Position numbers and translations under genes: made by a program. Under the pieces are notes generated by a model. That model was not told the DNA's origin. It did no database searches and saw only the letters and a program-made list of their open reading frames with translations. Below are positions 2,545 to 48,995 of a DNA stretch of 64,000 nt, piece by piece (within the stretch, counting starts at the first letter, position 1; the number at the start of each line of letters is the position of its first letter). The stretch comes from Minisyncoccia bacterium (lineage in GTDB: Bacteria; Patescibacteriota; Minisyncoccia; Phycocordibacterales; CALRBL01). The stretch lies in NCBI GenBank assembly GCA_038227435.1, contig JBBRPW010000001.1, forward strand, positions 9,632-73,631. Direction: 5' to 3'.

Positions 2545-3453
2545 ATGAATCGTTCGTACTTTTTAGGTTTATTTGTTGGATTATGCATAATCGGTGCTTT
2601 TTTCTATGCATCACGTGTAATTGGAGAAACCACAATAACAAATGTATATACAAATCCGGCCGTTACACAAAATTTGTCTAACTCTCGCCCTGGGCAGCCT
2701 ATTCGTATTATTGAACCAGCGGAAGGCAATGATTATTCAGAATACCCCTATCTTTACCCCGTTACTTTGGGTTTACGTTTAGGAAATACGGGAAATCCAG
2801 TGAGATCGCTACAGGTAATATTAAATAATGACTCTGATACACAGGTTGGAGCGCGTGGAGCTGGGTCAGCCGGCTTCGAAACCACATCGTTTGGCTCAAA
2901 AACCAGACTTGCTTTATTGAAATTTCAACGAAAATACGCCTTATTTCAAACAGGATATGTAGATTTGGCAACATTTAATAAAATAAACCTTCTATTAAGT
3001 GGGGTAGATACTAATGCAACAAGTACCGCGGCGACACTGATTGGTCAAGCTGCAAATGCACCCCAAAGTGTATTCAGTAATTATTTTTCAAACTACCCCT
3101 CTAGTCTTAATGGACCCACAATTACAACTGTTACCCCTACAACTGTTCATGACGGAGACACTGTAACAATTACAGGCACTGGTTTTTTGGATTTAAATAA
3201 AATAACTACCGGATTCGATCATTTTGATGATGTTCCATCAACAGACGGTAGAACAATTACCTTTGTGTTTAGAAGTAGATTGCAGACTGATACGAACCGG
3301 CAAATCGCAGCATCAGGTAATTCAAGAAGACAATCTGAAGTAAGGGCGGCGTTCGAAAGATATACCGCAAATCGCCCATTTCCTTTTTTCCTTATGGTTA
3401 GTAATGGAAATGGAACAAGCAATACCTTTAGAGGTATATTTCAACTTAGATAA
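2545..3453 (+). CDS. Secreted protein with a putative peptidoglycan-binding (PG_binding_1-like) segment.
   Basis: N-terminal TM helix. The motif TRLALLKFQRKYALFQTGYVDLATFNKI resembles the PG-binding domain 1 consensus. Confidence 0.5.
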   Translation: MNRSYFLGLFVGLCIIGAFFYASRVIGETTITNVYTNPAVTQNLSNSRPGQPIRIIEPAEGNDYSEYPYLYPVTLGLRLGNTGNPVRSLQVILNNDSDTQVGARGAGSAGFETTSFGSKTRLALLKFQRKYALFQTGYVDLATFNKINLLLSGVDTNATSTAATLIGQAANAPQSVFSNYFSNYPSSLNGPTITTVTPTTVHDGDTVTITGTGFLDLNKITTGFDHFDDVPSTDGRTITFVFRSRLQTDTNRQIAASGNSRRQSEVRAAFERYTANRPFPFFLMVSNGNGTSNTFRGIFQLR

Positions 3454-16251: not shown

Positions 16252-16326
16252 GCACCCGTGGTGAAATGGATATCACAACAGTCTTCGGAACTGTTTTTGT
16301 AGGTTCGAGTCCTGCCGGGTGCACCA
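16252..16326 (+). tRNA. tRNA-Arg (anticodon TCG), CCA encoded.
   Basis: Manual fold: acceptor GCACCCG/CGGGTGC, D stem GTGA/TCAC, anticodon stem ACAGT/ACTGT with loop CTTCGGA, T arm GTAGG-TTCGAGT-CCTGC, 3' ACCA. Confidence 0.85.
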
Positions 16327-16341
16327 GATAGGGTAGAGTGA

Positions 16342-16412
16342 GCGGGTATGGTTTAGTGGTAGAACACGTCCTTGCCAAGGACGAGTCGAGGGTTCGATTC
16401 CCTCTACCCGCA
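16342..16412 (+). tRNA. tRNA-Gly (anticodon GCC); CCA not encoded.
   Basis: Acceptor GCGGGTA/TACCCGC, anticodon stem CGTCC/GGACG with loop TTGCCAA, T arm AGGGTTCGATTCCCT. Confidence 0.85.
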
Positions 16413-16567
16413 CTAGGAACGAGTATAAAACAAAACGAAGTTTTGTTTTATCGAGTGACGACGTACGGGGAAGACTGGCTCTCCTGAGCCAGGCTTACAA
16501 GCACTAGGAGTTTGTCAAAGACAAACTCCTCAAAATCCCCTAAACTAACGGACCAATATAAGACAAC

Positions 16568-16576
16568 TGTGGATAA
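16568..16576 (-). promoter_or_regulatory. Perfect DnaA-box 9-mer (TGTGGATAA on the + strand).
   Basis: Exact reverse complement of TTATCCACA, lying between tRNA-Gly and the yraN-like gene. Confidence 0.3.
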
Positions 16577-16747
16577 CTACGGGGATATGTGCTTAAAAGA
16601 CATTCTAAATATCCTTATTCTTAGCCAAATGACTTTTATAATCGACATTAAGGAGCACTTTATAAAACATCATTTTTACCCATATATTTATACCTTTTTT
16701 ATAATTTCTTAATTAAAATTTTACGTATAGTATTCCAAAATCGATGA

Positions 16748-17188
16748 ATGAAATTAAAAGACATTGGTAGATATGGGGAAGCTGTCGCTAAATACTATTT
16801 TAAAAATAAGGGATATACATTCCTATCCGCAAACTTTCAAATAAGTGAAGGGGAGATTGATTTAATTTTTAAAAAAGACAATGAAATCGTTGCGATTGAA
16901 GTAAAGGCCTCAGTTATTCCTGGGAATAATGTTTTTAGTTATGAATACAGCCCAATTCAGAAAATAAATAGATTAAAACTTCATAAAATCAAAATTACAT
17001 TGTGTCACTTCATTAAAAAGCATCACCAATATAGATATTTCAACAAAAGGGTAGATTTGATAGGGGTTAGAATTCTTTCACGAGTATCCTCAGAAGATTT
17101 TAAGAATTTGAAAACTATAAGTGAGGCAATTAAGTTAAATCTCTTTAAAAACATCTTTATTACGCATATTCCCAATGTAATTTGGTAA
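16748..17188 (+). CDS. yraN: YraN/UPF0102-family predicted endonuclease.
   Basis: GRYGEAVAKYYFKNKGYTFLSANFQISEGEIDLIF...IVAIEVKA matches the UPF0102 core. Confidence 0.7.
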   Translation: MKLKDIGRYGEAVAKYYFKNKGYTFLSANFQISEGEIDLIFKKDNEIVAIEVKASVIPGNNVFSYEYSPIQKINRLKLHKIKITLCHFIKKHHQYRYFNKRVDLIGVRILSRVSSEDFKNLKTISEAIKLNLFKNIFITHIPNVIW

Positions 17189-17232
17189 AAATTTCATGGC
17201 TTTTTTGAATCATTATGCTATGCTCCTTGTAC

Positions 17233-17305
17233 CGGAGTGTAGTGTAACGGCTAACATTCTTGATTTGGGATCAAGCGACTCAGGGTTCGAATCCCTGCAC
17301 TCCGA
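17233..17305 (+). tRNA. tRNA-Pro (anticodon TGG).
   Basis: Acceptor CGGAGTG/CACTCCG, anticodon stem CTTGA/TCAAG with loop TTTGGGA, T arm CAGGGTTCGAATCCCTG. Confidence 0.85.
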
Positions 17306-17336
17306 CAAGTTTAAGTACTAATAAAGATTCAAAAAT

Positions 17337-17642
17337 ATGGCTTTCATTAAAAATGTGGAAGATTTTAAGTGTGAAAAATGTGGAACCGATATAAAAGGCG
17401 ATGGTTTCACTAACCATTGTCCTAATTGTTTATATAGTAAGCACGTCGACAACGATCCGGGGGATAGGAAAAATACATGTGGTGGCTTAATGAAGCCAAT
17501 TGCCTATATTAAAATGAAAGAGAAGGAAAAAATTACTCATCAATGTTTAGTTTGCGGCGAAGAGAAAAATAATAAAGTTTGCCTAAATGATAGTAGGGAA
17601 GCAATGGTTACTATGATTAAAAATGGAATTGAAGAGAATTAA
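17337..17642 (+). CDS. Small Cys-rich zinc-ribbon protein, RNHCP-domain-like.
   Basis: CEKCG...FTNHCPNCLYSKHVD...CGG...CLVCG; the xNHCP motif resembles the RNHCP family. Confidence 0.5.
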   Translation: MAFIKNVEDFKCEKCGTDIKGDGFTNHCPNCLYSKHVDNDPGDRKNTCGGLMKPIAYIKMKEKEKITHQCLVCGEEKNNKVCLNDSREAMVTMIKNGIEEN

Positions 17643-17709
17643 TTCCAAATAAAGCTCTGGATTGAAATATCTCTAGTATTTGCTACTATCTTCATACAAA
17701 CAAATAAAT

Positions 17710-17780
17710 GCGGGATTGGTTTAGTGGTAGAATGACTGCCTTCCAAGCAGTAGACAAGGGTTCGATTCCCTTATCCCGCA
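17710..17780 (+). tRNA. tRNA-Gly (anticodon TCC).
   Basis: Acceptor GCGGGAT/ATCCCGC, anticodon stem ACTGC/GCAGT with loop CTTCCAA, T arm AGGGTTCGATTCCCT. Confidence 0.85.
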
Positions 17781-17904
17781 CAAGACATGAACAGTTTGAG
17801 ACGGCTCGCTGTCTCAAACTAGTGAATGGCGCAGTGCGGGGCAATGTCCGCACTAGGAGTGAAACTCCTTCTCCTTCTTTCCATATTTTTTAATTTATTA
17901 AATA

Positions 17905-28326: not shown

Positions 28327-30735
28327 ATGAAAAAGTCATTTAAGCAAATAGCAGTCATCATTGGAGCCCTTATTTTAGGATTAGGGTCGACATACATTTA
28401 CGCTGCTACGTTTACGGAACCAGCTTGTGCGCCAACAGGATGTAATACATCAGCACCAATTGATGTCAGTGCTGCAGCCCAGTCAAAAACTGGTGGTTTA
28501 ACGCTCTCAGACCCTACAACTGGAATACTGACTGCCAACGGAGGAGCAATAACCGGGGCTTTAGTGAATAATGGAGGTTCGGTACTTGTTGGAAATGTGG
28601 GAGTTGGAACAACAAGTGTTGCTCAAAAAATGACAGTTGATGGAAATCTAAATTTTACAGGTGCCTTAATGACACGTAATAGTGCTGGTGCTCTTGGAAC
28701 AGTGATGTTATCTCAAGGAGCTAAACAATCTCCGATATGGGTGGCAACATCTTCTCTAGGCTTTTCAAATGGAGGGAGCGGTGGAAACGGTGGAGTAAGT
28801 GGAACAGTGGGTACACTTTCTAAATTTATCACGGCATCTTCAGTAGGAAACTCAATTGTTACAGAAGTAGGTCCAAACGTAATTGTAGGATCAGGAGCGG
28901 GAGCAATTCAAATTGGAGGAAGCGACGCAACTCCTCAAGGAATGTGGATTCGAAACGATACAGCAAATCCGGTAATTAGTACAAAAACTGGAGATATGTT
29001 TATGGGATATCAAGGACGTGCTGGGATGACATGGAGGTTTGGTAGTGGAGGAACAGGGGCTTTATTTGCAAATGATATGCCGGCTAACTCATTTACAATA
29101 AATTCTTCCGGATATATTGGTGTCGGAAAAGCTTCAGGATCGATGGCTGGAATTGATGTGAGCGGTCAAGTGCGAGTTGACGGACCAAGTGCTGGAATCA
29201 TATACGCAGACCGATCAACAAACAGACAGTGGCAACTATATGGAACTAGTGATTCTTTCAGATTGTATAATGGAGGAGGAGATGCACTTACTATTGACCC
29301 AAGTGGAAATATTACTGCAGGCGCAATTGGAACAGCAGGATCTTTACCAAGTGATAAACCAGCAGGATGGGCAGGAGGAGTTTCTACATACGACGTAGTC
29401 GCTAAAGCATCGGTACGTGCAAATCAGTTTTGTATAGGAGGCGGAGTAAATTCAACAACACCGGGATCATGTATTACTGCATGGCCCACAGGTGGAAGTG
29501 GTGGAGTAAGTGGAACACTAAATTATCTTGCTAAATTTACACCAAACGGAACGACAGCAGGAAACTCTCAAATTTACGATGATGGAACAAATGTTGGAGT
29601 TGGGAACACAATTCCTGGAGCAAAACTTGATGTTACTGGTAATGTAAAAGCTACTCAATTTTGTTTACCGGGAACTAATCCAACAGGGGGATGTATTTCT
29701 ACTTGGCCTGTAAGTGGAGGATCTGGAACAGTTGGACCTGGAACGGTAAATAAAGTTGCTAAATTTACACCAAATGGAGCAACAGTGGGAGATTCGATCA
29801 TCACGGATAACGGAACAAATGTTAACATTGGAACAGTTGGATCTGCCAAAGCCACACTAACAGTTAATGGTCAAAATGGAGACGCGGTAAATATTTATGC
29901 ACCGTCTGATAATCATCTCGCTATTCAAACCACACTAGATGACAATCCTTTAGGAGTATATGGAGGCGGTCAAAATCAATTATCTCTTCAACCGCTTGTA
30001 GGAAATGTAGGAATCGGAACACTTAACCCAATACGAACATTGGATGTGAAGGGTATTATTCGAACAACAGATGGTAGTCCAACAGGATGGAACTTCTGGG
30101 GTGGGACAAACTTACATATTGGTAATGATGCAAACTATCAAGGATCACCAGCAATCTTTATTCAAGGATCAGATCAAAATGTTGGAATTAACATAACAAA
30201 TCCGGATGAGAAACTAACCGTAACTGGAAACATTAAAGCATCTGGGCAAATGATTTCACAAGGCATTGACGTAGGCGCAGGGCTTGTAGCAGCTGGTTTT
30301 AACGCTAAAAATACAGGAGTATTTAATATGGCAATGACAGGAGGAGCACTTAGTATGTACAATCCAGCAGATGCGGTTCCTGGAGGAAACTTTAGTTTAA
30401 CAATTCTTGGAAGTGCAAATGCGTCAGCTTATTATTACAACTCAGATAAACGACTTAAAAATAATATTAATAATATTGACTCAACAGACGCTCTATCGAA
30501 AATCATAAAACTTCAAGGAGTAACATTTAATTGGAATGCTGATAATCGAAAAGATGTTGGACTTATCGCTCAAGATGTTGAAAAAGTATTTCCAGATGTT
30601 GTAAAAACAAACTCTGATGGATATAAGAGTGTTGAATACGGAAACTTGATAGCACCATTAATTGAATCTGTTAAAGCACAACAGAAAGAAATTGATGCGT
30701 TGAAAAAAGAGATTCAGTCATTAAAAAATAAATAA
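28327..30735 (+). CDS. Large Gly-rich secreted fibre-like protein with a C-terminal peptidase-S74-type intramolecular chaperone (endosialidase / tail-fibre chaperone) domain.
   Basis: C-terminal ...SDKRLKNNINNIDSTDALSKIIKLQGVTFNWNADNRKDVGLIAQDVEKVFPDVV...VEYGNLIAPLIESVKAQQKEIDAL matches the S74 auto-cleaving chaperone consensus. N-terminal signal present. Confidence 0.7.
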   Translation: MKKSFKQIAVIIGALILGLGSTYIYAATFTEPACAPTGCNTSAPIDVSAAAQSKTGGLTLSDPTTGILTANGGAITGALVNNGGSVLVGNVGVGTTSVAQKMTVDGNLNFTGALMTRNSAGALGTVMLSQGAKQSPIWVATSSLGFSNGGSGGNGGVSGTVGTLSKFITASSVGNSIVTEVGPNVIVGSGAGAIQIGGSDATPQGMWIRNDTANPVISTKTGDMFMGYQGRAGMTWRFGSGGTGALFANDMPANSFTINSSGYIGVGKASGSMAGIDVSGQVRVDGPSAGIIYADRSTNRQWQLYGTSDSFRLYNGGGDALTIDPSGNITAGAIGTAGSLPSDKPAGWAGGVSTYDVVAKASVRANQFCIGGGVNSTTPGSCITAWPTGGSGGVSGTLNYLAKFTPNGTTAGNSQIYDDGTNVGVGNTIPGAKLDVTGNVKATQFCLPGTNPTGGCISTWPVSGGSGTVGPGTVNKVAKFTPNGATVGDSIITDNGTNVNIGTVGSAKATLTVNGQNGDAVNIYAPSDNHLAIQTTLDDNPLGVYGGGQNQLSLQPLVGNVGIGTLNPIRTLDVKGIIRTTDGSPTGWNFWGGTNLHIGNDANYQGSPAIFIQGSDQNVGINITNPDEKLTVTGNIKASGQMISQGIDVGAGLVAAGFNAKNTGVFNMAMTGGALSMYNPADAVPGGNFSLTILGSANASAYYYNSDKRLKNNINNIDSTDALSKIIKLQGVTFNWNADNRKDVGLIAQDVEKVFPDVVKTNSDGYKSVEYGNLIAPLIESVKAQQKEIDALKKEIQSLKNK

Positions 30736-39649: not shown

Positions 39650-40873
39650 ATGCCCGTTTCAATTAATGAAGCAATAGAGAAGAAATATATTACGATTGGA
39701 ACATACGTGTTGGTACGTGTTGATTTTAACGTATCGATGGATGGAAATACGGTTCGTGATGATTACCGAATTGCGCGGGCACTTCCCACTATTTTAGCCC
39801 TCACGAGTGCTGGCGCAAAAGTAATTTTAATAAGTCATATTGAATTAAGCGAATCTAAAAAACATGGATTAACTGCGGGGAAAAACGATGCCGATAAAAG
39901 TGCGGTGCCAAGCCTACAACCCGTATACGATTATATTAAAACAACATATCCAAAAGAGTTTAATCGATGTTATTTTGTACCTGATTTATTAAGTGAACAA
40001 GGTAAAAAACAAGTGTCACTGTTAAAAGAAGGCGAAATTATTTTAGCCGAAAATATTCGAATGTATGAAGGAGAAAAAAAGAACGACACTGATTTTGCAG
40101 CTGCGCTCGCTAGTTTAGCTACAGTATATGTGAATGATGCCTTCGCTGTGTCTCATCGAGCGCACGCTTCAGTGGTTGGAGTGCCAGCGCTTAAAGCATC
40201 AAATGAACGCTTTGCTGGTCTTTTACTTCAATCTGAAATTGAAGCACTTGACCCTTCAATTCAAAAACCTCGTCCATTTATATTTATCTTAGGAGGAGCG
40301 AAGTTTGAAACAAAACTCCCACTCATTACAAAATATTTAGATGTGGCCGACCATGTTTTTGTGGGAGGAGCACTTGCCAACGACTTATTTAAACTACAAG
40401 GAAATAACGTAGGAAATTCATTAGTATCAACAGATAAAAATATTGAAGAAAGCCTTCGTGAAATTTTAAAAAATAAAAAATTAATTATTCCTGAAGATGT
40501 TTTTGTACTATGCGGACAACATATCGAAATTAAACATCCGGAAGATGTTAAAGATGGTGAAAATATTTTAGATATTGGCCCCGAAAGTTTAGTGAAGTTC
40601 GAATCTTTATGTGAGAATGCTGGATACATTGTATGGAATGGCCCACTTGGTGATTACGAACGCGGTTTTGAATTTGGAACATTAATGCTTGCAAAAATTT
40701 TAGCAAATCTTAATCACAACAAAACACGGACAGTGGTTGGAGGAGGCGACACATTAGCGGCCATCAAAAAAGCCAACGTTTTCGATAAATTCGGCTTCGT
40801 TTCAACAGGAGGAGGAGCAATGCTCGAATACTTAGAGAAGGGAACCCTCGTGGGAGTTGAGGTGTTGAAATAG
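39650..40873 (+). CDS. pgk: Phosphoglycerate kinase.
   Basis: N- and C-terminal PGK motifs (ILISH..., GGGDTLAAI..., STGGGAMLEYLEG). Confidence 0.9.
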   Translation: MPVSINEAIEKKYITIGTYVLVRVDFNVSMDGNTVRDDYRIARALPTILALTSAGAKVILISHIELSESKKHGLTAGKNDADKSAVPSLQPVYDYIKTTYPKEFNRCYFVPDLLSEQGKKQVSLLKEGEIILAENIRMYEGEKKNDTDFAAALASLATVYVNDAFAVSHRAHASVVGVPALKASNERFAGLLLQSEIEALDPSIQKPRPFIFILGGAKFETKLPLITKYLDVADHVFVGGALANDLFKLQGNNVGNSLVSTDKNIEESLREILKNKKLIIPEDVFVLCGQHIEIKHPEDVKDGENILDIGPESLVKFESLCENAGYIVWNGPLGDYERGFEFGTLMLAKILANLNHNKTRTVVGGGDTLAAIKKANVFDKFGFVSTGGGAMLEYLEKGTLVGVEVLK

Positions 40874-40926
40874 GTGATTTAAAATCTATTTTTCTTTTTT
40901 GGGTAGGTGTGTAGTATTATTGATAT

Positions 40927-41676
40927 ATGTTTGAAAAATATCTTCAAGAATTAGGATTATCCGATAAGGAGGCAAGTGTATATATTTCACTTCTCCAGGT
41001 AGATAACGACTCAGTACTCGATTTGTCTAAAAAAACAAAAATTAATAGAACCACTATCTACCCAGTCCTTGAAAGCTTGGCCAAAAAAGGTCTTATTAGC
41101 GAAGCACAAGTTGATAAAAAGATTAGATATCACGCCGAACCACCCGAACGATTAGAAACATATGTTGAGCGGCAAAAAACAATGCTTCAAGAGCATTCAA
41201 ATCGATTAAAAGATGTAATTCCTCAGTTAAAAAGTATTCAGAGGGAAACTGGGGAAAAACCAATGGTTAAGTATTTTGAAGGTAGACAGGGTGCGATCAG
41301 TTCTCTTGAAGAGTTTTATAATTCAATCGGAAAAGGTGGCACTGCATATTTAATTTATCCAAAAGATGCAATAAAAAATATCTTCAATGAAAAAGAAATT
41401 GAAAAATATCGATCAATACGCCTTAAAAGGGAAATAAAGACAAAAGTAATAAGTACTTCGTCAAAAAACGACATAATTTCTGATTCAACAGGTAATCGAA
41501 TACAAATTGACGGAGAAAAGTATCCCATCACTTCGGATATTGCTATTTACGAAGATAAAGTAAGGGTTACTATTTTGGGGAAGTCTTTAGCAGCATTTTC
41601 AATAAAGAGTCAGGATCTTGCTGATACACTTCGTAGTTTATTTGATTTGGTATTTGATCTATCAAAAAATAAATAA
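40927..41676 (+). CDS. TrmB-family HTH transcriptional regulator.
   Basis: N-terminal LGLSDKEASVYISLL...INRTTIYPVLESLAKKGLI winged-helix region typical of TrmB. Confidence 0.6.
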   Translation: MFEKYLQELGLSDKEASVYISLLQVDNDSVLDLSKKTKINRTTIYPVLESLAKKGLISEAQVDKKIRYHAEPPERLETYVERQKTMLQEHSNRLKDVIPQLKSIQRETGEKPMVKYFEGRQGAISSLEEFYNSIGKGGTAYLIYPKDAIKNIFNEKEIEKYRSIRLKREIKTKVISTSSKNDIISDSTGNRIQIDGEKYPITSDIAIYEDKVRVTILGKSLAAFSIKSQDLADTLRSLFDLVFDLSKNK

Positions 41677-41696
41677 GAGACTTATATAATAAAAGA

Positions 41697-41738
41697 TACC
41701 CCGATCGCACAACGTGCTGCGATCGGGGTATTTGGTTT
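41697..41738 (+). terminator. Rho-independent terminator ACCCCGATCGCAcaacgtgcTGCGATCGGGGT + TTTGGTTT.
   Basis: 12-bp perfect GC-rich stem followed by a T-rich tail. Confidence 0.6.
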
Positions 41739-42326
41739 AGACCCCGTGGTCTTTTACTCCGAGAACGATAAGGTATTGCCCTTCGCGTTCTCGAACGATT
41801 TCATTGGCCTACCCCTCGGGGTAGAAAATAAGGTGTGTTTACTAGTCAGACATACTATTTTTCCTTCGGTCGGGGTTCTCTCTAACAAGGTTTGGATTTT
41901 GAGGACAGCTTTTAGCTACTAGTCCCAGCCAACAGCCGATTCGGGCGCTGTTGGCTGGGACTTTCACTTTCGGCTAGTCGCCCATATTACCTCCTTGTTA
42001 AGGTTCGGGAATCGTTCATAAGCAAGAGCGCTAATGAATTTCCAAATAAAATTTAGCATAATAAAATTGGTCTGTCAACATGTTTTAACTAAATTGAGTA
42101 TATTTGATCAATTTTATATAAAATAAGGCTATGAATATAGCTTCAATAGTGTTTTTACTTGTTATTGTCGGTTTTTGTGTTTTGACACCTGAAAAATACT
42201 ACAAAACAAATATTTTTTAATGCAATTAATGTAGTTTTATGTCATATCTAATTTACATATATTGTATATAATATCCTTATTTATCAATACTATAATGGAA
42301 TATTAAATTTAATCTGTCATAAACAC

Positions 42327-42354
42327 TTGACAAAAATATAAATATCCGTATTAT
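42327..42354 (+). promoter_or_regulatory. Sigma70-like promoter TTGACA-16 nt-TATTAT driving the island's + strand transcription.
   Basis: Consensus -35 and near-consensus -10 with 16-nt spacing, about 200 nt upstream of the first island ORF. Confidence 0.4.
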
Positions 42355-42478
42355 CTTTCTCAGTTAGAACTTTTCACCTCAACCCCCAAAGAACAATGCG
42401 TTACTACGTGCTCCCCGACGGGACCGTGGTGATCAACCCCTCTGACGCCTACTAAGGCGTTACGGGATGATCCCACTT

Positions 42479-42530
42479 CTGCGGCTTAGGCACGCGGGGG
42501 AATAATGCACCCTGGCAACAGAATCGCATC
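42479..42530 (+). repeat. Repeat family R1, copy a (CTGCGGCTTAGGCACGCGGGG...CCTGGCAACAGAAT), in the 5' leader of island ORF-A.
   Basis: A 21/21 identical block plus a 14-nt block shared with copy b at 43777-43828. Confidence 0.55.
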
Positions 42531-42561
42531 CACTAAAACATCACCCTAATTTTTTACAACT

Positions 42562-42843
42562 ATGAAAAAGATCGTGATCGGAATGATGGTCGTTCTCGCT
42601 CTACTCTTGTCGTTTGTTGCAGGTGTCTTCTACGGCACCAACGCAACTATCGCCAAGATGGAATTGCTGGAAACCCCCAGAGGCCGCATTCTTTACTACT
42701 TCATTCCGAATACATCTGCTTCGACAGAAATTTATTCGCTTGATAGTGGAGAAGATGCTGATCTCTACGAGGATTCAACACAAATTCCTGACGAAGACGT
42801 GACTGAGAGGAAAGACTCTCTGAAGGACGACACTAACCTTTAA
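42562..42843 (+). CDS. Island ORF-A: small membrane-anchored protein with an acidic C-terminal tail.
   Basis: 93-aa ORF. TM helix IVIGMMVVLALLLSFVAGVFYG. The last 14 codons and the stop lie inside repeat R2a. Confidence 0.4.
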   Translation: MKKIVIGMMVVLALLLSFVAGVFYGTNATIAKMELLETPRGRILYYFIPNTSASTEIYSLDSGEDADLYEDSTQIPDEDVTERKDSLKDDTNL

Positions 42844-42897
42844 TTCAAAAGTGTTTATTTTTGCGACCGTTTTAAATGGTTGGTTGGCGTGCAGCGC
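42801..42897 (+). repeat. Repeat family R2, copy a (97 nt), immediately upstream of HHR1.
   Basis: 94 of 97 positions identical to copy b at 45769-45866. Contains hairpin GAGAG-gaaaga-CTCTC. Confidence 0.7.
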
Positions 42898-42935
42898 TAA
42901 GAGAAAACTTTAAATCCTAACTATAAAAAGTTAGA

Positions 42936-42987
42936 TCTGTCTCGAAATGTAATTTCGACTGATGAGCTCTAGAGAGCGAAACAGAAA
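42936..42987 (+). ncRNA. Hammerhead ribozyme, type III topology (HHR1).
   Basis: TCTGTC|TCGAAATgtaATTTCGA-CTGATGA-GCTCtagaGAGC-GAAA-CAGA. All core nucleotides present (C3-A9, G12-A14, A15.1-U16.1, GUC cleavage triplet). Three stems fold as required. Confidence 0.75.
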
Positions 42988-43436
42988 GTACTTTAAAACC
43001 AAGAAAAATAATAAAAGTTAAATTCGTCTGCACTTGAGAGTGTTTTTAAAAATATTCTCACGTGCAGGCGAAAGTAGCGCCAAAGCATGTGATCGGTAGT
43101 ACACATTTAAATCTTGAGTGAGTGTCTCGGATTTAAGTGGAGTTGTACTACGTATTAATTCATCACCAAAAAAATGATTAGTGGGATGTTCTGATTGTTC
43201 TCGTACGCCTCGCGAGAGACCAACAGTCAAAATGTCACATCATTTGAGTAGGGACAAGCAGTTCGTTGCTGTGCACCGAACTTTGATGAATTATGGCTGT
43301 GAACGATCTGAGGTGAGTACCGCAAGGTAACTCAGTTTGATCTAGTAATAGTTATGGGGAAAGCGCATAAGGCTTGGTCGCCAAGTGTGTATTACCTGCT
43401 ACAAAATTTCTAAACCTCAACCAAAAAAGAATTACT

Positions 43437-43772
43437 ATGGCACATTACAGTACTTTTATTTTTCAGTTGCCAGGATGTCCCGAGATTTATATGAGTACTC
43501 GGTACAACATTATTCAGGACTTTGATTGCATTCGAAATAAGTTTGGAAAGGGGTTGATTAAGTTCAAACCTTTCTACAAGCCTGATCGAGTGCAATTTAC
43601 TCCTCCGAGTAATGGAGAAAAGCATCCTTGGGTATTGCTGACTAAATATCAGCGTAGGAAGATTCAAACCTTCCTCAATGTGGTCTACCGAAAGGGAAAC
43701 CACAGGGTACCTCGGAGATGGCGCAAGTTCGTAAAGAACGACGGCGTCTTTCCAAAGGAGTGTCTCGACTGA
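43437..43772 (+). CDS. Island ORF-B: small basic protein (R/K-rich C-terminus).
   Basis: 111-aa ORF from ATGGCACATTAC; no homologue recognised. Confidence 0.35.
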   Translation: MAHYSTFIFQLPGCPEIYMSTRYNIIQDFDCIRNKFGKGLIKFKPFYKPDRVQFTPPSNGEKHPWVLLTKYQRRKIQTFLNVVYRKGNHRVPRRWRKFVKNDGVFPKECLD

Positions 43773-43776
43773 GCAA

Positions 43777-43828
43777 CTGCGGCTTAGGCACGCGGGGTAC
43801 ACATACTACCTGGCAACAGAATTGTATG
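43777..43828 (+). repeat. Repeat family R1, copy b. It follows the ORF-B stop and precedes HHR2.
   Basis: Shares CTGCGGCTTAGGCACGCGGGG and CCTGGCAACAGAAT blocks with R1a. Confidence 0.55.
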
Positions 43829-43857
43829 AAACTGACTAGTAATTATTTACTAGTCAC

Positions 43858-43909
43858 TCTGTCTCGAAATGTAATTTCGACTGATGAGCTCTAGAGAGCG
43901 AAACAGAAA
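43858..43909 (+). ncRNA. Hammerhead ribozyme, type III (HHR2), 52/52 identical to HHR1.
   Basis: Same sequence as HHR1, preceded by the 9-bp palindrome GACTAGTAA-ttat-TTACTAGTC. Confidence 0.75.
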
Positions 43910-44304
43910 TACATTAAAAATAAAATAATTTCTTTACACCTCATCCGGCGTTTATTTGCGGCACGAAAATAACCACGCAAACAAAAAATGTGGAAACCCG
44001 CTAGACGCTGGTTGAGGTGTAATGAACAAAAAATATAGGTTGCTAGTTAACCTGATCCGAGGAGCTCTGGTTTTCCATAAGGAAAACTAAAACTTTCGGG
44101 CTTTAGTGGGGCAAGCAACGTAACGCCGGATGCGTACGTGTGAGGCCAAAAGCACAAAAACTACTTGTTTGCCCAGCTATCGGGGAATAAGCGTCGTTCG
44201 TGGTACGGCGTTATGAGCATAAGTATCAAAATCTCCGAAGCCATTCGCCCTTAAGGGTGAAATGGTTCTAGTGAGGAATTTTGAGAACGTTCTCTAACAA
44301 CCAC
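43910..44304 (+). ncRNA. Roughly 395-nt ORF-free, highly structured spacer between HHR2 and HHR4. Candidate large structured RNA of unknown class.
   Basis: Long-range inverted repeats TTACACCTCA/TGAGGTGTAA and CATCCGGCGTT/AACGCCGGATG. Local hairpins GTTTTCC-ataa-GGAAAAC and CCATTCGCCC-ttaa-GGGTGAAATGG. No ORF over 40 codons on the + strand. Confidence 0.35.
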
Positions 44305-44357
44305 TTTGTTTATCGATGTGTTTCGATACTGAAGAGCTCAAAAGAGCGAAACAGAAG
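44305..44357 (+). ncRNA. Hammerhead-like ribozyme variant (HHR4): CTGAAGA core (position 7 = A), GUU cleavage triplet, short stem III.
   Basis: TTTGTT|TATCGAtgtgttTCGATA-CTGAAGA-GCTCaaaaGAGC-GAAA-CAGAAG. Position 7 is tolerant and U17 is permitted but weaker. Confidence 0.5.
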
Positions 44358-44393
44358 ATCTTTAAATTTCAGCAACTTCAACCCCCTAAAAAA

Positions 44394-44699
44394 ATGCAAA
44401 ACCCATATGGTTCGGAGAAGCAGTTGGAAACCACCGAACAGCAGATCGACCGCCGTGTCGCGCTCAGTGTCCTCGAAGTGAGCTACCATTTTTGGGGCGC
44501 ACTTCGGGGTGGTGGCGAACGGGCCGCTGCGAACCTTTTGAACAGTTTGAAAGGTGCAGCACCACGCGGCTACTACTTCACTGTCTCGGCAGATAGGGAG
44601 TGGCGTCCGCGTGCAAACAAAGACGGAACGTTCGAGTTCCGCCGCCTGTTTCAGCCCCGAACCAACACTGTCGCCATCATCGGATTGGCAAGACGATAG
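44394..44699 (+). CDS. Island ORF-C: hypothetical protein.
   Basis: 101-aa ORF starting at ATGCAAAACCCA, directly downstream of HHR4. Confidence 0.35.
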   Translation: MQNPYGSEKQLETTEQQIDRRVALSVLEVSYHFWGALRGGGERAAANLLNSLKGAAPRGYYFTVSADREWRPRANKDGTFEFRRLFQPRTNTVAIIGLARR

Positions 44700-44719
44700 T
44701 GCCGGAAGGGTTGAAACAC

Positions 44720-44830
44720 ACGTTAAGAGTCACCGTAAAAAACTCTGGTCTGATCCACTAACAACGATCACTCGTTTATCGTATGCGAGCTTCAAAAAAC
44801 GTTCGGGTCCGCCCGTGATAGCGGCGTCGG
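44720..44830 (+). repeat. Repeat family R3, copy a (about 110 nt), followed by hairpin GGGGAAtttatTTCCCC.
   Basis: About 93% identical to copy b at 46431-46540. Some differences are compatible with conserved pairing (AACGA/TCGTT versus AATGA/TTGTT). Confidence 0.65.
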
Positions 44831-44916
44831 TAGGGGAATTTATTTCCCCACTTTATTGAGCCTGTCACATTCGGTGATTGGTTCATCAAGTTCGTTCTTT
44901 TCAAAAAAATAAAAAT

Positions 44917-45330
44917 ATGAAACTTAACGTCAAGGCTATCCGTAGTTTTGTGCTTAGTCAGGTAGTGGACAAGGAAGAGTCAGAAGCACTCATCTTTTAT
45001 TTGGCTGGCATCAATGCCGAATTCTATCTCGTAGATCCTCACACCTGCGGAGAAGAAGCAGGAGAGATTGGCTTCATGGGTTTCAACTTCACCGACAAGG
45101 TGAATGATGCAATGAATGCTGGTCTTTGGGCTGTGATTTACGACGATGGGCGCGATTATGCTTACCATAAGTACTTCCTTTTCGAGGAAGACGCTAAAAG
45201 TTTTGCAAATCGGGTTGGTGGAGGCTTATTGAAGTACACCAACACTGCAAATCGGCTGAAAGTTATTGCCCACTTTAGAAAGTTGGGCTTAATCGAAGAA
45301 GTTCCTGAAGAAGAAGGAATTCTCGAATAA
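44917..45330 (+). CDS. Island ORF-D: hypothetical acidic protein.
   Basis: 137-aa ORF from ATGAAACTTAAC. Confidence 0.4.
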   Translation: MKLNVKAIRSFVLSQVVDKEESEALIFYLAGINAEFYLVDPHTCGEEAGEIGFMGFNFTDKVNDAMNAGLWAVIYDDGRDYAYHKYFLFEEDAKSFANRVGGGLLKYTNTANRLKVIAHFRKLGLIEEVPEEEGILE

Positions 45331-45463
45331 CTTTAAGTCAATTCATATACGTTCTGCATAACGTAAAAAATGTAGCTGTTTTGCTCAATATGCGTGCAAG
45401 AAATTGCATGTCGACATATTGGCTTCTTCAGTGAAAAAAGAAGGTAAGAAAGGAGGATCAACA

Positions 45464-45760
45464 ATGATCATCGACCTTTCTCTTCGTAATGAGCGCCTGT
45501 ACAAGGGTTGCGAAATTACGGAGGTGGCAGGCCGGCTGAACTTGGTTACTCCAGTTGCTGATGCAGTTAATATCGTTGGCCGCAACGCCAATGGGTTGAT
45601 TGCAGAAGTTGCTGCGAGTGATCGGAGCGAAGTCGAGCTTACGGGTCCGATGGCGGTTTGGTCTTACTTGATCGTTTTCCACGCTGTGGTTCACGCCTTT
45701 TCGAAGGTGTACTACAACGATGGGAAAGGTCGGGTACTGATCGCCGCCCACGGCGCCTGA
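45464..45760 (+). CDS. Island ORF-E: hypothetical protein preceded by a strong Shine-Dalgarno.
   Basis: AAAGGAGGatcaacaATG gives a canonical SD at optimal spacing. 98-aa ORF (MIIDLSLRNERLYKG...). Native genes in this window generally lack an SD. Confidence 0.5.
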   Translation: MIIDLSLRNERLYKGCEITEVAGRLNLVTPVADAVNIVGRNANGLIAEVAASDRSEVELTGPMAVWSYLIVFHAVVHAFSKVYYNDGKGRVLIAAHGA

Positions 45761-45768
45761 TGCCATCT

Positions 45769-45866
45769 GACTGAGAGGAAAGACTCTCTGAAGGACGACA
45801 CTAACCTTTAATTCAGAAGTGTCTATTTTTGCGACCGTTTTAAATGGTTGGTTGGCGTGCATCGCT
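45769..45866 (+). repeat. Repeat family R2, copy b, non-coding here, immediately upstream of HHR3.
   Basis: Near-identical to R2a. Confidence 0.7.
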
Positions 45867-45890
45867 GACGGATAGATGTTCTATCCGTCA

Positions 45891-45942
45891 TCTGTCACAG
45901 GGTATTACCTTGTCTGATGAGTTCAAAAGAACGAAACAGAAG
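45891..45942 (+). ncRNA. Hammerhead ribozyme, type III (HHR3), a sequence variant of HHR1/2.
   Basis: TCTGTC|ACAGGGTattACCTTGT-CTGATGA-GTTCaaaaGAAC-GAAA-CAGAAG. Full conserved core. Preceded by hairpin GACGGATAG-atgtt-CTATCCGTC. Confidence 0.7.
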
Positions 45943-45970
45943 ATCTTTCAAAACTCCACAAATAATTTTT

Positions 45971-46204
45971 ATGAATAATCATTCGAAAGAATTGGTATGT
46001 GTTCGAGTGATTAATGTATGCGCATCCATTAAAGGCTCTTTTGGATTAGGTCACTTTATAAAAGTCGATCTGTCTGGAGTCAGTGATTGGTATATATACT
46101 GCTCAAAAACTAAACCAATTGTCGGACAAGAAATTTCCATGTTTCTTACTATGTACGGCAAATGGACATGTCTCGATGACAGAGACAATGTCGAATCATT
46201 TTAG
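45971..46204 (+). CDS. Island ORF-F: small Cys-containing hypothetical protein directly downstream of HHR3.
   Basis: 77-aa ORF from ATGAATAATCAT. Confidence 0.3.
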   Translation: MNNHSKELVCVRVINVCASIKGSFGLGHFIKVDLSGVSDWYIYCSKTKPIVGQEISMFLTMYGKWTCLDDRDNVESF

Positions 46205-46430
46205 TCGAATTAAAACCCTATGATCAACATCATCAAATCTACTCGCTATAAGGTGAGTGGCTTCATTCGTAACTGCGTTAAAAACCCTCGCACGAGCTGG
46301 AAGCTGCGGAAGCAATTGGCTTCTCGCAGCATGCGTCGCCTCGATCGAAAGGTGATCGCTGCAACGGATGTTGAGGAGCATTCGTCGTGTGTCGTATACA
46401 ATAACTTCCTGGGCTATCCGTAGCAAGGAA

Positions 46431-46540
46431 ACGTTAAGAGTCAACGTAAAAAACTCTGGTCTGATCCACCAACAATGATCACTTGTTTATCGTATGCGAG
46501 CAACAAAAAACGTTCGGGTCCGCCCGTAATAGCGGCGTGG
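46431..46540 (+). repeat. Repeat family R3, copy b, ending at the island's terminal terminator.
   Basis: See R3a. Confidence 0.65.
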
Positions 46541-46542
46541 TT

Positions 46543-46570
46543 AAGAGGAACATCAGTTCCTCTTTTTTTA
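46543..46570 (+). terminator. Rho-independent terminator AAGAGGAAcatcagTTCCTCTT + T8.
   Basis: 8-bp stem followed by a T run. Confidence 0.6.
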
Positions 46571-46615
46571 TTTCTAAATCAAATTAAGTTAAAATTTATA
46601 AACCTACTTATTAAT

Positions 46616-47053
46616 TTATTTATCGAGCTCTGAAATTATTTTTTGAGCAATATCTTCTTTTTCTCCATCTTTATAAATAATATGTTCACCATATCTCATA
46701 CTCACTCCTTTATAACGAGGGATTAAATGTGCGTGTATATGTAATATTTCCTGGCCTCCATATGAGCGATTGTTAATGAGTAGATTTACTCCATCAAGTT
46801 TAAGAGCATTCTCTAAAACGTTTGCCACCCTTTTAACTCCTTTCATCATTGTTCCAAAAAGTTCTGTGTCGATCTGAAATATGTCGTCAGCATGTGTTTT
46901 TGGAATAATAATTGTATGTCCTAAGGCAAGAGGATTAATATCGAGGAATACAAAGACATCTGCGTCTTCATAAAGCTTTGTTGTGTTAACTTCTCCTGTA
47001 ATCATTTTGCAAAAGATGCAATCTTTATGGGTTAATTCGTTATTCATGGCCAT
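46616..47053 (-). CDS. HIT-family (histidine triad) nucleotide hydrolase.
   Basis: HIHAHLIP histidine triad motif. Confidence 0.85.
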   Translation of the reverse strand: MAMNNELTHKDCIFCKMITGEVNTTKLYEDADVFVFLDINPLALGHTIIIPKTHADDIFQIDTELFGTMMKGVKRVANVLENALKLDGVNLLINNRSYGGQEILHIHAHLIPRYKGVSMRYGEHIIYKDGEKEDIAQKIISELDK

Positions 47054-47093
47054 ATTTTAACACGTATACGGGCTAGCATGATACAATCTTTTC

Positions 47094-48995
47094 ATGTTTT
47101 CAGTACTACCTGGTATTCCAGAACAAGATTCTGCACGAAATGAATTAGCAAAATATAGCGATAGAATAAAACACCTGCTTTATCATAGAGGCATTAAAAC
47201 TGCCAAAGAGGCACAACATTTTTTGGACCCGGTATATGAGCATAATCATGATCCGATGTTGATGTCGGGCATGAAAAAAGCTACTGAACGTTTTTTACAC
47301 TCAATTGATACAAACGAACATATTGTAATTTATAGTGATTACGATGCTGATGGAATTCCTGGTGCAGTTGTGCTCGCCAGTTTCTTAAAGAGAATTGGTT
47401 ACACTAATTTTTCACACTATATACCTGACAGACACCTTGAAGGATTTGGTGTAAACATGGGAGCGATCGATGAAATAATTTATAGAGCAAAAATACATGA
47501 AATTCCGCATACTTTTTTATTAATTACCATCGACTGTGGAATATCAGATGTCGAACCAATTCAAAAAGCTAAAGATTTGGGAATCGATGTAATTATCACT
47601 GATCATCATATGCCTGGGAGTATTTTTCCTGCTGCATATGCCATTGTTAATCCCAAAATAAGTATTCAAGAGCAACAGGTATCTCCAAAAAAAGCAAAAA
47701 ATACAGAAGAATTAATTTATCCCTTCAATATGCTTTCAGGATCCGGTGTAATTTTTAAGTTTGTTCAAGGATTAATGTTACTCCGTGATTTTAGTGATAA
47801 AGGTTTTAAACCTGGCCATGAAAAATGGTTACTTGATATGGTGGGTATTGCAACAATGTCTGACATGGTTCCTTTAATTGGAGAAAACCGAATTTTTGCT
47901 CACTTCGGTTTGAAAGTATTGCGTAAATCTCCTCGAATTGGTTTGCAAACACTTCTTTCAAAACAGAAAATTGATCAACGCTACATTAACGAAGAAGATA
48001 TTGGATTTAGTATTTCTCCTCGTATAAATGCTGCGTCAAGAATGGGAAAAGCCGATAAAGCCCTTGAATTATTTTTGACCGATGATGAGTCGAAGGCATT
48101 AGAACTTTCAATTTATTTGCAGAAGTTAAACGATGAGCGTAAGGGATATGTTGCAGCTATTGTGAAAGATTTGAAAAAGCACCTAGAGGATGACCTTCTA
48201 GCTTCCGATAATTCAGACATTCCAAAATGTATTATTGTAAAAGGAAATCCCGATTGGAGACCATCACTTTTAGGACTAGCAGCAAATAGTTTAATTGAGC
48301 AATATAAATGCCCAGTATTTTTATGGGGGCGTGGAGAAGGAGGGACTATTATTAAGGGTTCTTGTAGAACTTATGTAACTGAAGGCATGAATGGGCATAT
48401 GAGTTTGGTTAATTTGATGCATAAAGCTGAAGAAATTTATAGCACTGAGCAGATTAAGAAAATCAAAAAAATAGATAAAGAAAAAATAGAAGAAATTAAA
48501 AAATTATTTCTTCATTGTGGAGGTCATGCAATGTCTGGGGGATTTGCTGTCGACCATGAACACATTCATCTCCTTCCTGAATATTTAGAAAAAGCAGTTA
48601 AATTTTATGCAAAAGATTTTTTAAATGAAAAAAACAATATTTCGAATGTACTCAAAGCCGATCTTGAATTAACACTCGATGAAATCGATATGCGTCTTTA
48701 TAATGAAATTTCGCAACTTGCACCATTTGGGGTAGGGAATCAAAAACCACTTTTACTCATTAGAAATGTGATTCCACAAGAAGTTCGTCAATTTGGTAAA
48801 GCTAAGGAACACTTTGAAATGAGTGCTCGAAATGGAAAAGGTCGCACGATAAAAATGCTTTGTTTTTTTGCGAAACCTGAAGATTTTCATGTTGTACCCG
48901 ATGTATTAAAACCTGTTTCAATTGTCGGGCACATTGAGCACTCTCGTTTTTTGGGAAAAAGTGAAATTAGGCTTAGATTGGTCGAAGTCTTCTAA
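47094..48995 (+). CDS. recJ: Single-stranded-DNA-specific exonuclease RecJ.
   Basis: DHH motifs (YSDYDADGI, ITDHH) and DHHA1 domain (GGGHAMSGG). Confidence 0.9.
   Translation: MFSVLPGIPEQDSARNELAKYSDRIKHLLYHRGIKTAKEAQHFLDPVYEHNHDPMLMSGMKKATERFLHSIDTNEHIVIYSDYDADGIPGAVVLASFLKRIGYTNFSHYIPDRHLEGFGVNMGAIDEIIYRAKIHEIPHTFLLITIDCGISDVEPIQKAKDLGIDVIITDHHMPGSIFPAAYAIVNPKISIQEQQVSPKKAKNTEELIYPFNMLSGSGVIFKFVQGLMLLRDFSDKGFKPGHEKWLLDMVGIATMSDMVPLIGENRIFAHFGLKVLRKSPRIGLQTLLSKQKIDQRYINEEDIGFSISPRINAASRMGKADKALELFLTDDESKALELSIYLQKLNDERKGYVAAIVKDLKKHLEDDLLASDNSDIPKCIIVKGNPDWRPSLLGLAANSLIEQYKCPVFLWGRGEGGTIIKGSCRTYVTEGMNGHMSLVNLMHKAEEIYSTEQIKKIKKIDKEKIEEIKKLFLHCGGHAMSGGFAVDHEHIHLLPEYLEKAVKFYAKDFLNEKNNISNVLKADLELTLDEIDMRLYNEISQLAPFGVGNQKPLLLIRNVIPQEVRQFGKAKEHFEMSARNGKGRTIKMLCFFAKPEDFHVVPDVLKPVSIVGHIEHSRFLGKSEIRLRLVEVF

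Follow-up and report, generated by a model that had tools for sequence, protein, structure and literature searches.

In the 64,000-nt stretch of contig JBBRPW010000001.1 from a Minisyncoccia bacterium (hereafter the window), the spacer at positions 43910-44304 lies between two type III hammerhead ribozyme motifs and consists of two separable modules joined to each other, A (43930-44026) and B (44030-44304), the second of which is a conserved, non-coding, pseudoknotted RNA domain. We think it probable that this spacer is a self-processed, stand-alone non-coding RNA (ncRNA) cassette of a hammerhead-punctuated operon, of a kind that recurs in ultra-small bacteria of the Candidate Phyla Radiation (CPR) type. 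An initial annotation of the DNA had proposed a large structured RNA delimited by ribozymes, and its structured-RNA interpretation is supported by the results described here. Features lie on the plus strand unless stated otherwise, and related contigs are designated by L numbers.

In order to establish whether the spacer is conserved, as the initial annotation had proposed to check, homologues were sought and were found in three further lineages, which keep the structure through compensatory changes. An nhmmer search with the spacer identified a homologue of its positions 125-393 in L046 (E = 8e-16), and a search with the L046 unit then led to L042 and L043 (E = 1.9e-5), where the match lies immediately before the first hammerhead; L043 is 99% identical to L042. 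A gapped pattern built from the blocks conserved in the window, L046 and L042/L043 retrieved an additional copy, in L065, from a metagenome collection, with an E-value of 3.5e-43 to a three-sequence hidden Markov model; the other 19 of the 20 loci matching this pattern were chance hits. The module B homologues occupy positions 1916-2200 of L046, 2041-2330 of L042 and 229-512 of L065, and the window copy shares 43-54% pairwise identity with them. No further copies were identified with a covariance model of the module B 3' domain among 21 related sources, where the only match (9.6 bits, E = 0.85) fell on a repeat named D2, and a strict pattern derived from helix P5 retrieved nothing from the metagenome collection. 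No match was obtained when the region was compared by blastn with collections of phages and plasmids. When viral contigs were scanned for the hammerhead core, 35 loci were returned, which had only the ribozyme in common and were set aside.

Module B comprises about 275 nt and eight helices. In the window, P1 (44037-44053) is a hairpin of the form RGGUUG-5 nt-UAACCY and is followed by P2, a variable long hairpin (44057-44099), and by P3 (44100-44153), also a long hairpin, whose internal loops are rich in G and A. The J3/4 junction ACAAAAAC (44154-44161; consensus ACAAAA(A)C) leads to the hairpins P4 (44164-44191) and P5 (44192-44210), the loop of the latter pairing with the 3' tail of the module. 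P6 (44214-44220/44289-44295) forms the base of a long arm that continues through P7 (44228-44235/44273-44282) and P8 (44240-44266), and in this arm the CGAA junction (44236-44239) and a GAAA junction are invariant. Other blocks that do not vary among the copies are ACGGCGUUA, CGAAnCCAU and ACAAAA.

The pairing scheme was examined on several alignments. On a sequence-only MAFFT alignment, with the consensus structure mapped from L042, 82.8% of cells were paired compared to 34-46% with slid pairing partners, and 12 pairs showed changes on both sides compared to 2-5 in the slid controls; P1, P4, P8 and the pseudoknot were 95-100% paired. RNAalifold applied to the plain MAFFT alignment returned 51 pairs, 18 of them compensatory, and included the pseudoknot helix. 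Because a model-fitted alignment left the MAFFT misalignment of P4 and P7 unrepaired, an alignment was also made by hand, which additionally sets P2, P3 and P7 in register and gives 66 pairs (95% standard), with 32 compensatory pairs against 3-8 in slid controls. Minimum free energy (MFE) folds of the four single sequences recovered P7 and P8 in every copy and P4, P5 and P6 in most. No reading frame is conserved among the homologues, evidence of translation being one of the points that the initial annotation had named as refuting: every copy carries multiple stops in all plus-strand frames, and the indels between copies are mostly not multiples of three.

The pseudoknot joins GUGGU in the P5 loop (44200-44204) to ACCAC at the 3' end of the module (44300-44304), and the latter strand directly abuts the 5' strand of stem III of the downstream hammerhead. 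The two strands change together across the copies, reading GUGGU/ACCAC in the window, GCGG/CCGC in L046 and GCAGU/ACUGC in L042 and L065, and the helix is 96% paired with two compensatory pairs on the MAFFT alignment. The hammerhead directly abuts the pseudoknot strand, with no linker, in three of the four lineages (window, L042 and L065), and the fourth, L046, has about 65 nt between the two. A hammerhead lies on the 3' side of module B in all lineages and separates it from what comes next. In the window, the J3/4 junction ACAAAAAC shows perfect complementarity to UUUGU (44305-44310), the unusual stem III 5' strand of this hammerhead, and the match is better than that of the ribozyme's own ACAGA strand; the corresponding complementarity in L042 and L046 has a central mismatch.

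The spacer itself has the non-coding character that the initial annotation had ascribed to it. Over 43864-44310, the extent of the predicted cleavage product, the three plus-strand frames contain 13, 9 and 8 stops and no open stretch exceeds 36 codons; with genetic codes 4 and 25 at least six stops per frame remain and no open reading frame (ORF) opens. The predicted MFE of the spacer is -130.9 kcal/mol, compared to -97.3 +/- 5.9 kcal/mol for a set of 100 dinucleotide shuffles, none of which folded equally well (z = -5.68), so that the plus strand is clearly separated from the controls that had been suggested for it; the minus strand gave z = -3.73 in the same test. The description of the spacer as G+C-rich holds against the host (43.0% compared to 35.8% in those parts of the window that lie beyond the island described below) and not against its own operon (44.1%). 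Both of the nested inverted repeats that had been described exist, with their 3' arms correctly placed and their 5' arms given about 10 nt too far upstream. The first, I1, pairs TTCTTTACACCTCATCCGGCGTTTA (43930-43954) with 44002-44026 over 25 nt at 84% complementarity, and the second pairs CATCCGGCGTTTATTTGC (43942-43959) with 44115-44132 over 18 nt at 83%. This second long-range helix (43942/44115, 11-18 nt) is not kept in the homologues, where both of its arms lie in local helices, and we rejected it because it is not conserved and competes with those conserved local helices. The local hairpins GTTTTCC-ATAA-GGAAAAC (44069-44086) and CCATTCGCCC-TTAA-GGGTGAAATGG (44241-44266) were both located as proposed. 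Conversely, the GNRA tetraloops claimed for the spacer were not seen, the loops being UUAA, AUAA and similar.

Four type III hammerheads were identified in the window. Hammerhead 2, the upstream boundary of the spacer (43855-43910), has the core CUGAUGA...GAAA with C17 and stems I-III readable from the sequence, and is predicted to cut after C43863. Hammerhead 3, the downstream boundary (44302-44358), was located by a pattern scan; it has the core CUGAAGA...GAAA, U17 and one G-U pair in stem III, with a cut predicted after U44310. Both agree with the conserved type III core (C3-U4-G5-A6-N7-G8-A9 ... G12-A13-A14, A15.1-U16.1 and H17, not G), and U17 and A17 were found in other hammerheads of the arrays as well. 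Hammerheads 1 (42933-42988) and 4 (45888-45943) are predicted to cut after C42941 and C45896, respectively. A search of 40000-48000 with the Rfam model RF00008 reported three sites at 40-42 bits and E about 1e-6, namely hammerheads 1 (40.3 bits, E = 3.5e-6), 2 (41.9 bits, E = 1.2e-6) and 4 (40.1 bits); hammerhead 3 was not reported by this model and gave only a 13.7-bit match to HH9. We also built a clade covariance model, R2, from 26 hammerheads of related contigs only, with the window excluded. Over the 64-kb window R2 gave exactly four matches, at 57.9-62.4 bits and E = 2e-14 to 3.5e-13, corresponding to hammerhead 1 (57.9 bits, E = 3.5e-13), hammerhead 2 (62.1 bits, E = 2.5e-14), hammerhead 3 (60.9 bits, E = 5.4e-14) and hammerhead 4 (62.4 bits, E = 2.1e-14). 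The claim of a hammerhead at each end is therefore borne out by E-values of about 1e-14 for the two bounding motifs from a model trained without them, and both are genuine hammerhead motifs.

In the alignment of the 26 hammerheads, 90.1% of cells were paired compared to 32-50% when slid, stem I was paired throughout (100%) and 14 of the 16 pairs showed changes on both sides. The core is surrounded by three helices, with loops closing stems I and II and stem III left open. Among 30 distinct array hammerheads (window and L036-L065), stem III (CUGU/ACAG) is almost invariant and stems I and II covary freely, and this near-invariance implies that the 3' tail of any cassette could pair with any 5' hammerhead body. 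Type III hammerheads are cut close to their 5' end, so the released RNA would start with the body of hammerhead 2. The approximately 400-nt release proposed by the initial annotation therefore stands with respect to its bounding sites and changes in extent, as the two cleavage sites predict a product of 447 nt (43864-44310) that keeps the upstream hammerhead body at its 5' end.

The first part of this product after the hammerhead body and linker, module A, is a leader hairpin (CUUUACACCUCA.../...UGAGGUGUAAUG) that corresponds to inverted repeat I1 and encloses a CCAC/GUGG hairpin. Similar hairpins follow hammerheads in L039, L044, L046 and L065, and RNAalifold on these five lineages, including the window, gave 22 pairs, of which 12 are kept via changes on both sides. 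What comes after module A varies: an ORF of 90 codons in L039, one of 76 codons in L044 and only a doubtful 50-codon ORF in L065. This variation suggests that module A is a reusable leader and that the payload is what comes next. In L046, module B has a hammerhead on either side and belongs to a unit of 640 nt in which no gene was called. The L042 and L065 copies begin about 60 nt past the predicted start and occupy the interval from the promoter to the first hammerhead.

No known RNA family accounts for the spacer, which is consistent with the earlier suggestion of a new ncRNA class. Rfam 15 at gathering thresholds reported only four tRNAs in the 64-kb window, and no GOLLD, ROOL, OLE, raiA, RNase P, tmRNA, intron or riboswitch; Rfam matches up to E = 10 within 43850-44370 were at chance level, and ARAGORN found no tmRNA. 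The tRNAs form a cluster at 16252-17781 (Arg-TCG, Gly-GCC, Pro-TGG and Gly-TCC) with small ORFs in between. A weak alignment of the window copy to RAGATH-11 (RF03148; 17.9 bits compared to a gathering score of 79.4, E = 0.29-0.85, the lower value from a 176-nt search) was treated as chance. RAGATH-11 gave no match in the L042 copy, nor anywhere in L042, L046 or L065.

On the basis of these features, a single promoter near 42340 would drive a roughly 4.2-kb, highly structured transcript that the four hammerheads would cut into five pieces, probably co-transcriptionally. The third piece (43864-44310) would consist of the spent hammerhead 2 body, an A/U-rich linker, module A and module B. The pseudoknot would tie the 3' tail of module B to the P5 loop, and hammerhead 3 would cut six nt past it. 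Hammerhead cleavage leaves 5'-OH and 2',3'-cyclic phosphate ends, and the product would be a compact RNA with these termini. The fold, its conservation, its lack of coding capacity, the hammerhead motifs and the layout of the arrays are shown by the sequences. From these we infer that the 447-nt RNA is transcribed, cleaved in vivo and stable, and that it acts in trans; it would most likely persist as a trans-acting RNA or an RNA-protein particle rather than as the untranslated region of a neighboring mRNA.

The putative operon of roughly 4.2 kb, as predicted from its signals, has one promoter and four type III hammerheads and is structured throughout. Its sigma-70-type promoter (TTGACA-16-TATTAT, 42327-42354, with a start predicted near 42361) is a consensus match with 11 of 12 positions and the top promoter-like site in 41600-46800; equivalent promoters precede the arrays of L042 (1950-1977) and L065 (145-172). 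An intrinsic terminator is predicted at the operon end (46543-46564) and a weaker terminator-like site at 44833-44849, each following a copy of the 113-nt repeat D2. In 300-nt windows, the island at 41550-46650 gave folding z-scores of -2 to -9 compared to -1.4 to +1.4 in the flanking genes, with z = -8.9 at 45450-45749. Island-wide strong folding was also seen in L042 (1126-4575) and L065 (226-2775), putative coding parts included. Same-strand type III hammerheads number seven within 6.2 kb in L039, five in L042, four each in L046 and L065 and three in L043.

Three families of direct repeats within the island look like reusable 3' cassette modules. One pair (42800-42898 and 45768-45866, 97%) lies before hammerheads 1 and 4, and a similar element is found before the L042 and L065 hammerheads; a second pair (44720-44832 and 46431-46543, 92%) lies ahead of both terminators, and a third is found at 42479-42529 and 43777-43827 (82%). 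Mini-ORFs with a common YY..V..DG.V motif were also observed, in the window at 42396-42455 (MRYYVLPDGTVV...) and, as MYYTYVIYDGEVY..., in L042 (2462-2539) and L065 (837-914). The L042 and L065 mini-ORFs have a strong Shine-Dalgarno sequence and the window copy has none. A second candidate ncRNA gene (41694-42043, folding z = -8.6) lies on the minus strand, divergent from the array, with a promoter-like site at 42078-42050 (TTGACA-17-TAAATT with TG) and a 14-bp terminator at 41731-41696. It has a conserved counterpart beside a TrmB gene of L042 (about 1338-1700), where the promoter matches at 12/12 positions, shares blocks such as AUAUGnnCGACUAGCC with that copy, and has no Rfam or ARAGORN match.

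The genes of the island are small and mostly without known families, most ORFs of the arrays having no Pfam or PHROG match. Upstream of hammerhead 2, the gene that we call protein 2 (43438-43772, 111 aa) follows a structured leader of 450 nt (42988-43437, z = -6.85) and has 15 homologues at 52-70% identity, among them proteins from a metagenome-assembled genome (MAG) annotated as Candidatus Taylorbacteria and from a Saccharibacteria MAG. For protein 2, no Pfam or PHROG family, no defense-family match and, with an AlphaFold2 (AF2) model of moderate quality, no PDB fold match was found. A scan of the genome collection with the protein 2 family gave one Saccharibacteria MAG, which lacks module B. 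The hosts of these loci appear to be CPR-type bacteria. Directly after hammerhead 3, an ORF of 101 aa (44395-44699) is an orphan found only in its own genome, and with 57% G+C and a folding z-score of about -3 to -4 it may not be a real gene.

Further along in the cassette block downstream of hammerhead 3 is a Csx3-like gene (45464-45760, 98 aa). Its product matches the PADLOC Csx3 model (E = 3.4e-4), and all 36 of the sampled relatives match Csx3 as well (best 4e-8), within a family of at least 700 members at about 70% identity. The AF2 model (predicted local distance difference test score 95.6) has as its top PDB fold the Csx3/Crn3 structure 6yud with cyclic tetra-adenylate (cA4), at probability 0.97, a TM score of only 0.41 and E = 0.016; no Pfam match and no PDB sequence match were obtained. 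Relatives occur on 12 IMG/VR viral contigs (G+C from 23% to 60%), without hammerheads. Additionally, a cassette protein of about 130 aa in L065 (1128-1520) matches Csx20 over its full length (E = 1.6e-7), and its L042 homologue (2750-3148) carries PF27247 (MJ1673). Crn3/Csx3 and Csx20 are cA4 ring nucleases, enzymes with which cells and viruses shut down type III CRISPR signaling and which phages deploy as anti-CRISPRs (PMC12409355). The ring-nuclease-like matches are moderate and suggest, from protein sequence and models, that the arrays may be accessory or counter-defense gene sets; given these cassettes nearby, the RNA may be one payload of such a set.

The genes around the island are of an ordinary chromosomal kind (PGK, TIM, type IV pilus genes, TrmB, HIT, RecJ, RNase H and ComEC). 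Neither an integrase nor a phage structural gene was found near the tested loci; the window holds no CRISPR array, and no RtcB was seen among the flanking genes tested. Elsewhere in the window, an 802-aa protein (28327-30735) beside the T2SSE and T2SSF pilus genes ends in a Peptidase_S74 (endosialidase chaperone) domain of the phage-tail-fiber type. Among the 28 ORFs of 300 aa or more, the stop is TAA in 21 and TAG in 7, and TGA is not used, compared to TGA in two of the five island ORFs whose stop was read, protein 2 and the Csx3-like gene. Together, the G+C content and TGA usage hint that the island is of foreign origin or under a different constraint.

However, several observations weigh against an independent RNA cassette. 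All hammerheads of the window stay below the RF00008 gathering score of 48.5 bits, a shortfall that reflects the short stem II and its loop and not a defect of the core; relatives in L042 reach 48.6 bits. Strong folding (z from -2 to -9) is shared by the whole island, so the z-score of the spacer is not specific to this unit. Module B is promoter-proximal in two of the four lineages, the usual position of a cis-regulatory leader, and none of the array proteins strictly accompanies it: protein 2 is missing from L065, and many protein 2 loci lack module B. Finally, the highest pair counts come from a hand alignment fitted to the structure and thus biased towards it, and the sample consists of only four independent lineages, which limits the statistical power.

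A first rival explanation is a cis-acting role, in which module B would sense a ligand, a protein or a physical signal and control the downstream cassette without acting as a free RNA, for example by regulating how the adjoining hammerhead folds or cleaves, or whether transcription proceeds into the array. We judge this unlikely, although not negligibly so. The placement of module B close behind a strong promoter and ahead of everything else in L042 and L065 fits such a role, as do the contact between the pseudoknot 3' strand and the next stem III in the window, L042 and L065, the capacity of ACAAAAAC to compete with hammerhead 3's own stem III 3' strand in the window, and the presence there of the Csx3-like gene in the block downstream of hammerhead 3. 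However, no terminator/antiterminator or platform sequestering a ribosome-binding site lies between module B and the hammerhead, the gap of about 65 nt in L046 and the central mismatch in the junction-stem III pairing of L042 and L046 speak against it, and module B is internal, with ribozymes on both sides, in the window and L046. In addition, no natural hammerhead is known to be allosteric. Circular or otherwise RNA-level mobile cassettes, whose units would be ligated by RtcB or by hammerhead reversal and whose structured cargo would help circles persist, seem quite improbable. RNA ends with a 5'-OH and a 2',3'-cyclic phosphate are RtcB substrates, the units of the window and L046 are hammerhead-made at both ends, and the near-invariant stem III would let the 3' tail of a unit rebuild the nicked ribozyme with its own 5' body; the unusually structured island and the reshuffling of cassettes between arrays also agree with circles. 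Against them, module B of L042 and L065 has no upstream hammerhead and could not circularize by such a route, no RtcB, reverse transcriptase or replicase was found among the tested flanking genes, and the loci lie in chromosomal DNA, where their promoters and terminators are of the ordinary kind. Moreover, circular or spliced products of clustered bacterial hammerheads were sought by Perreault et al. and none were found (PMC3088659).

It is highly improbable that the spacer is a decayed coding cassette or an incidental stretch whose structure only mirrors the composition of the island and has no function. Small ORFs do occupy the equivalent site behind module A elsewhere (90 aa in L039 and 76 aa in L044), the neighboring 101-aa ORF is an orphan and high structure is island-wide. 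Yet at 43-54% identity the copies keep P1, P4, P8 and the pseudoknot through compensatory changes and retain the blocks ACGGCGUUA, CGAAnCCAU and ACAAAA, and every homologue has multiple stops in every plus-strand frame; a pseudogene would not retain pairing while losing sequence. A self-processed, stand-alone ncRNA cassette is the explanation that we favor. As to its function, we tentatively offer, as a joint and on the whole unlikely proposal, that module B is the payload of a counter-defense or signaling array (a sponge or decoy for cyclic oligonucleotides or for a defense protein), an allosteric-hammerhead sensor or a circular RNA. As a sensor, module B would decide when the downstream ring-nuclease-like cassettes are cut free. 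If true, any of these roles would be a new bacterial use of self-cleaving ribozymes.

RAGATH motifs are candidate structured RNAs located close to genes that are associated with ribozymes of the twister and hammerhead types, and module B resembles them as a structured bacterial or phage ncRNA near self-cleaving ribozymes, the window copy having a weak alignment to RAGATH-11 and a loosely similar order of hairpins. However, module B is about 275 nt compared to 116 for RAGATH-11 and is not a member of that family. With viroid-like RNAs and retrozymes the unit shares type III hammerheads at both ends, a structured and mostly non-coding RNA and ligation-compatible ends. Unlike these, it is one of several different chromosomal units under one promoter, and hammerheads at both ends occur in the window and L046, with only the downstream ribozyme in L042 and L065. 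Like ROOL, GOLLD, OLE and raiA, module B is a multi-helix, pseudoknotted, conserved RNA in accessory genomic regions; it is smaller than these, its ends are set by ribozymes and not by a promoter and terminator, and it has no Rfam match. Self-cleavage of the glmS leader also leaves a 5'-OH on the downstream RNA, which makes glmS a possible model for a cis-regulatory role, but there is no relation in sequence or structure, the ribozyme here being an ordinary hammerhead.

The closest precedent is the work of Perreault et al. (2011), in which clustered hammerheads flank single genes in bacterial prophage-like regions; processing into single-gene RNAs was proposed, and cleavage was demonstrated in vitro and in E. 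coli (PMC3088659). The present arrays similarly place several same-strand hammerheads within a few kb and divide a polycistronic transcript into short blocks. In contrast, one block here is a conserved non-coding structured RNA and not a gene, the arrays are denser (up to seven hammerheads in 6.2 kb) and all type III, and the apparent hosts are of the CPR type, with ring-nuclease-like cassettes and no phage genes near the tested loci. In the literature searched, no paper links hammerheads with CPR groups. Hundreds of bacterial hammerheads are known and their biological role is largely unexplained, and this array family, with its interchangeable cassettes, offers a tractable case. Our results suggest that bacterial hammerheads cut out structured RNAs besides mRNAs. 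Should the RNA prove to be released and stable, hammerheads would be a general route to bacterial ncRNAs with defined ends, and module B would represent a new class of structured RNA from the poorly studied CPR bacteria. Thus, compared to the clustered bacterial hammerheads already known to process polycistronic transcripts, what is new here is the conserved non-coding cargo, the 3' end formed by a pseudoknot followed by a cleavage site, the density of the arrays, the CPR-type host range and the ring-nuclease-like cassettes.

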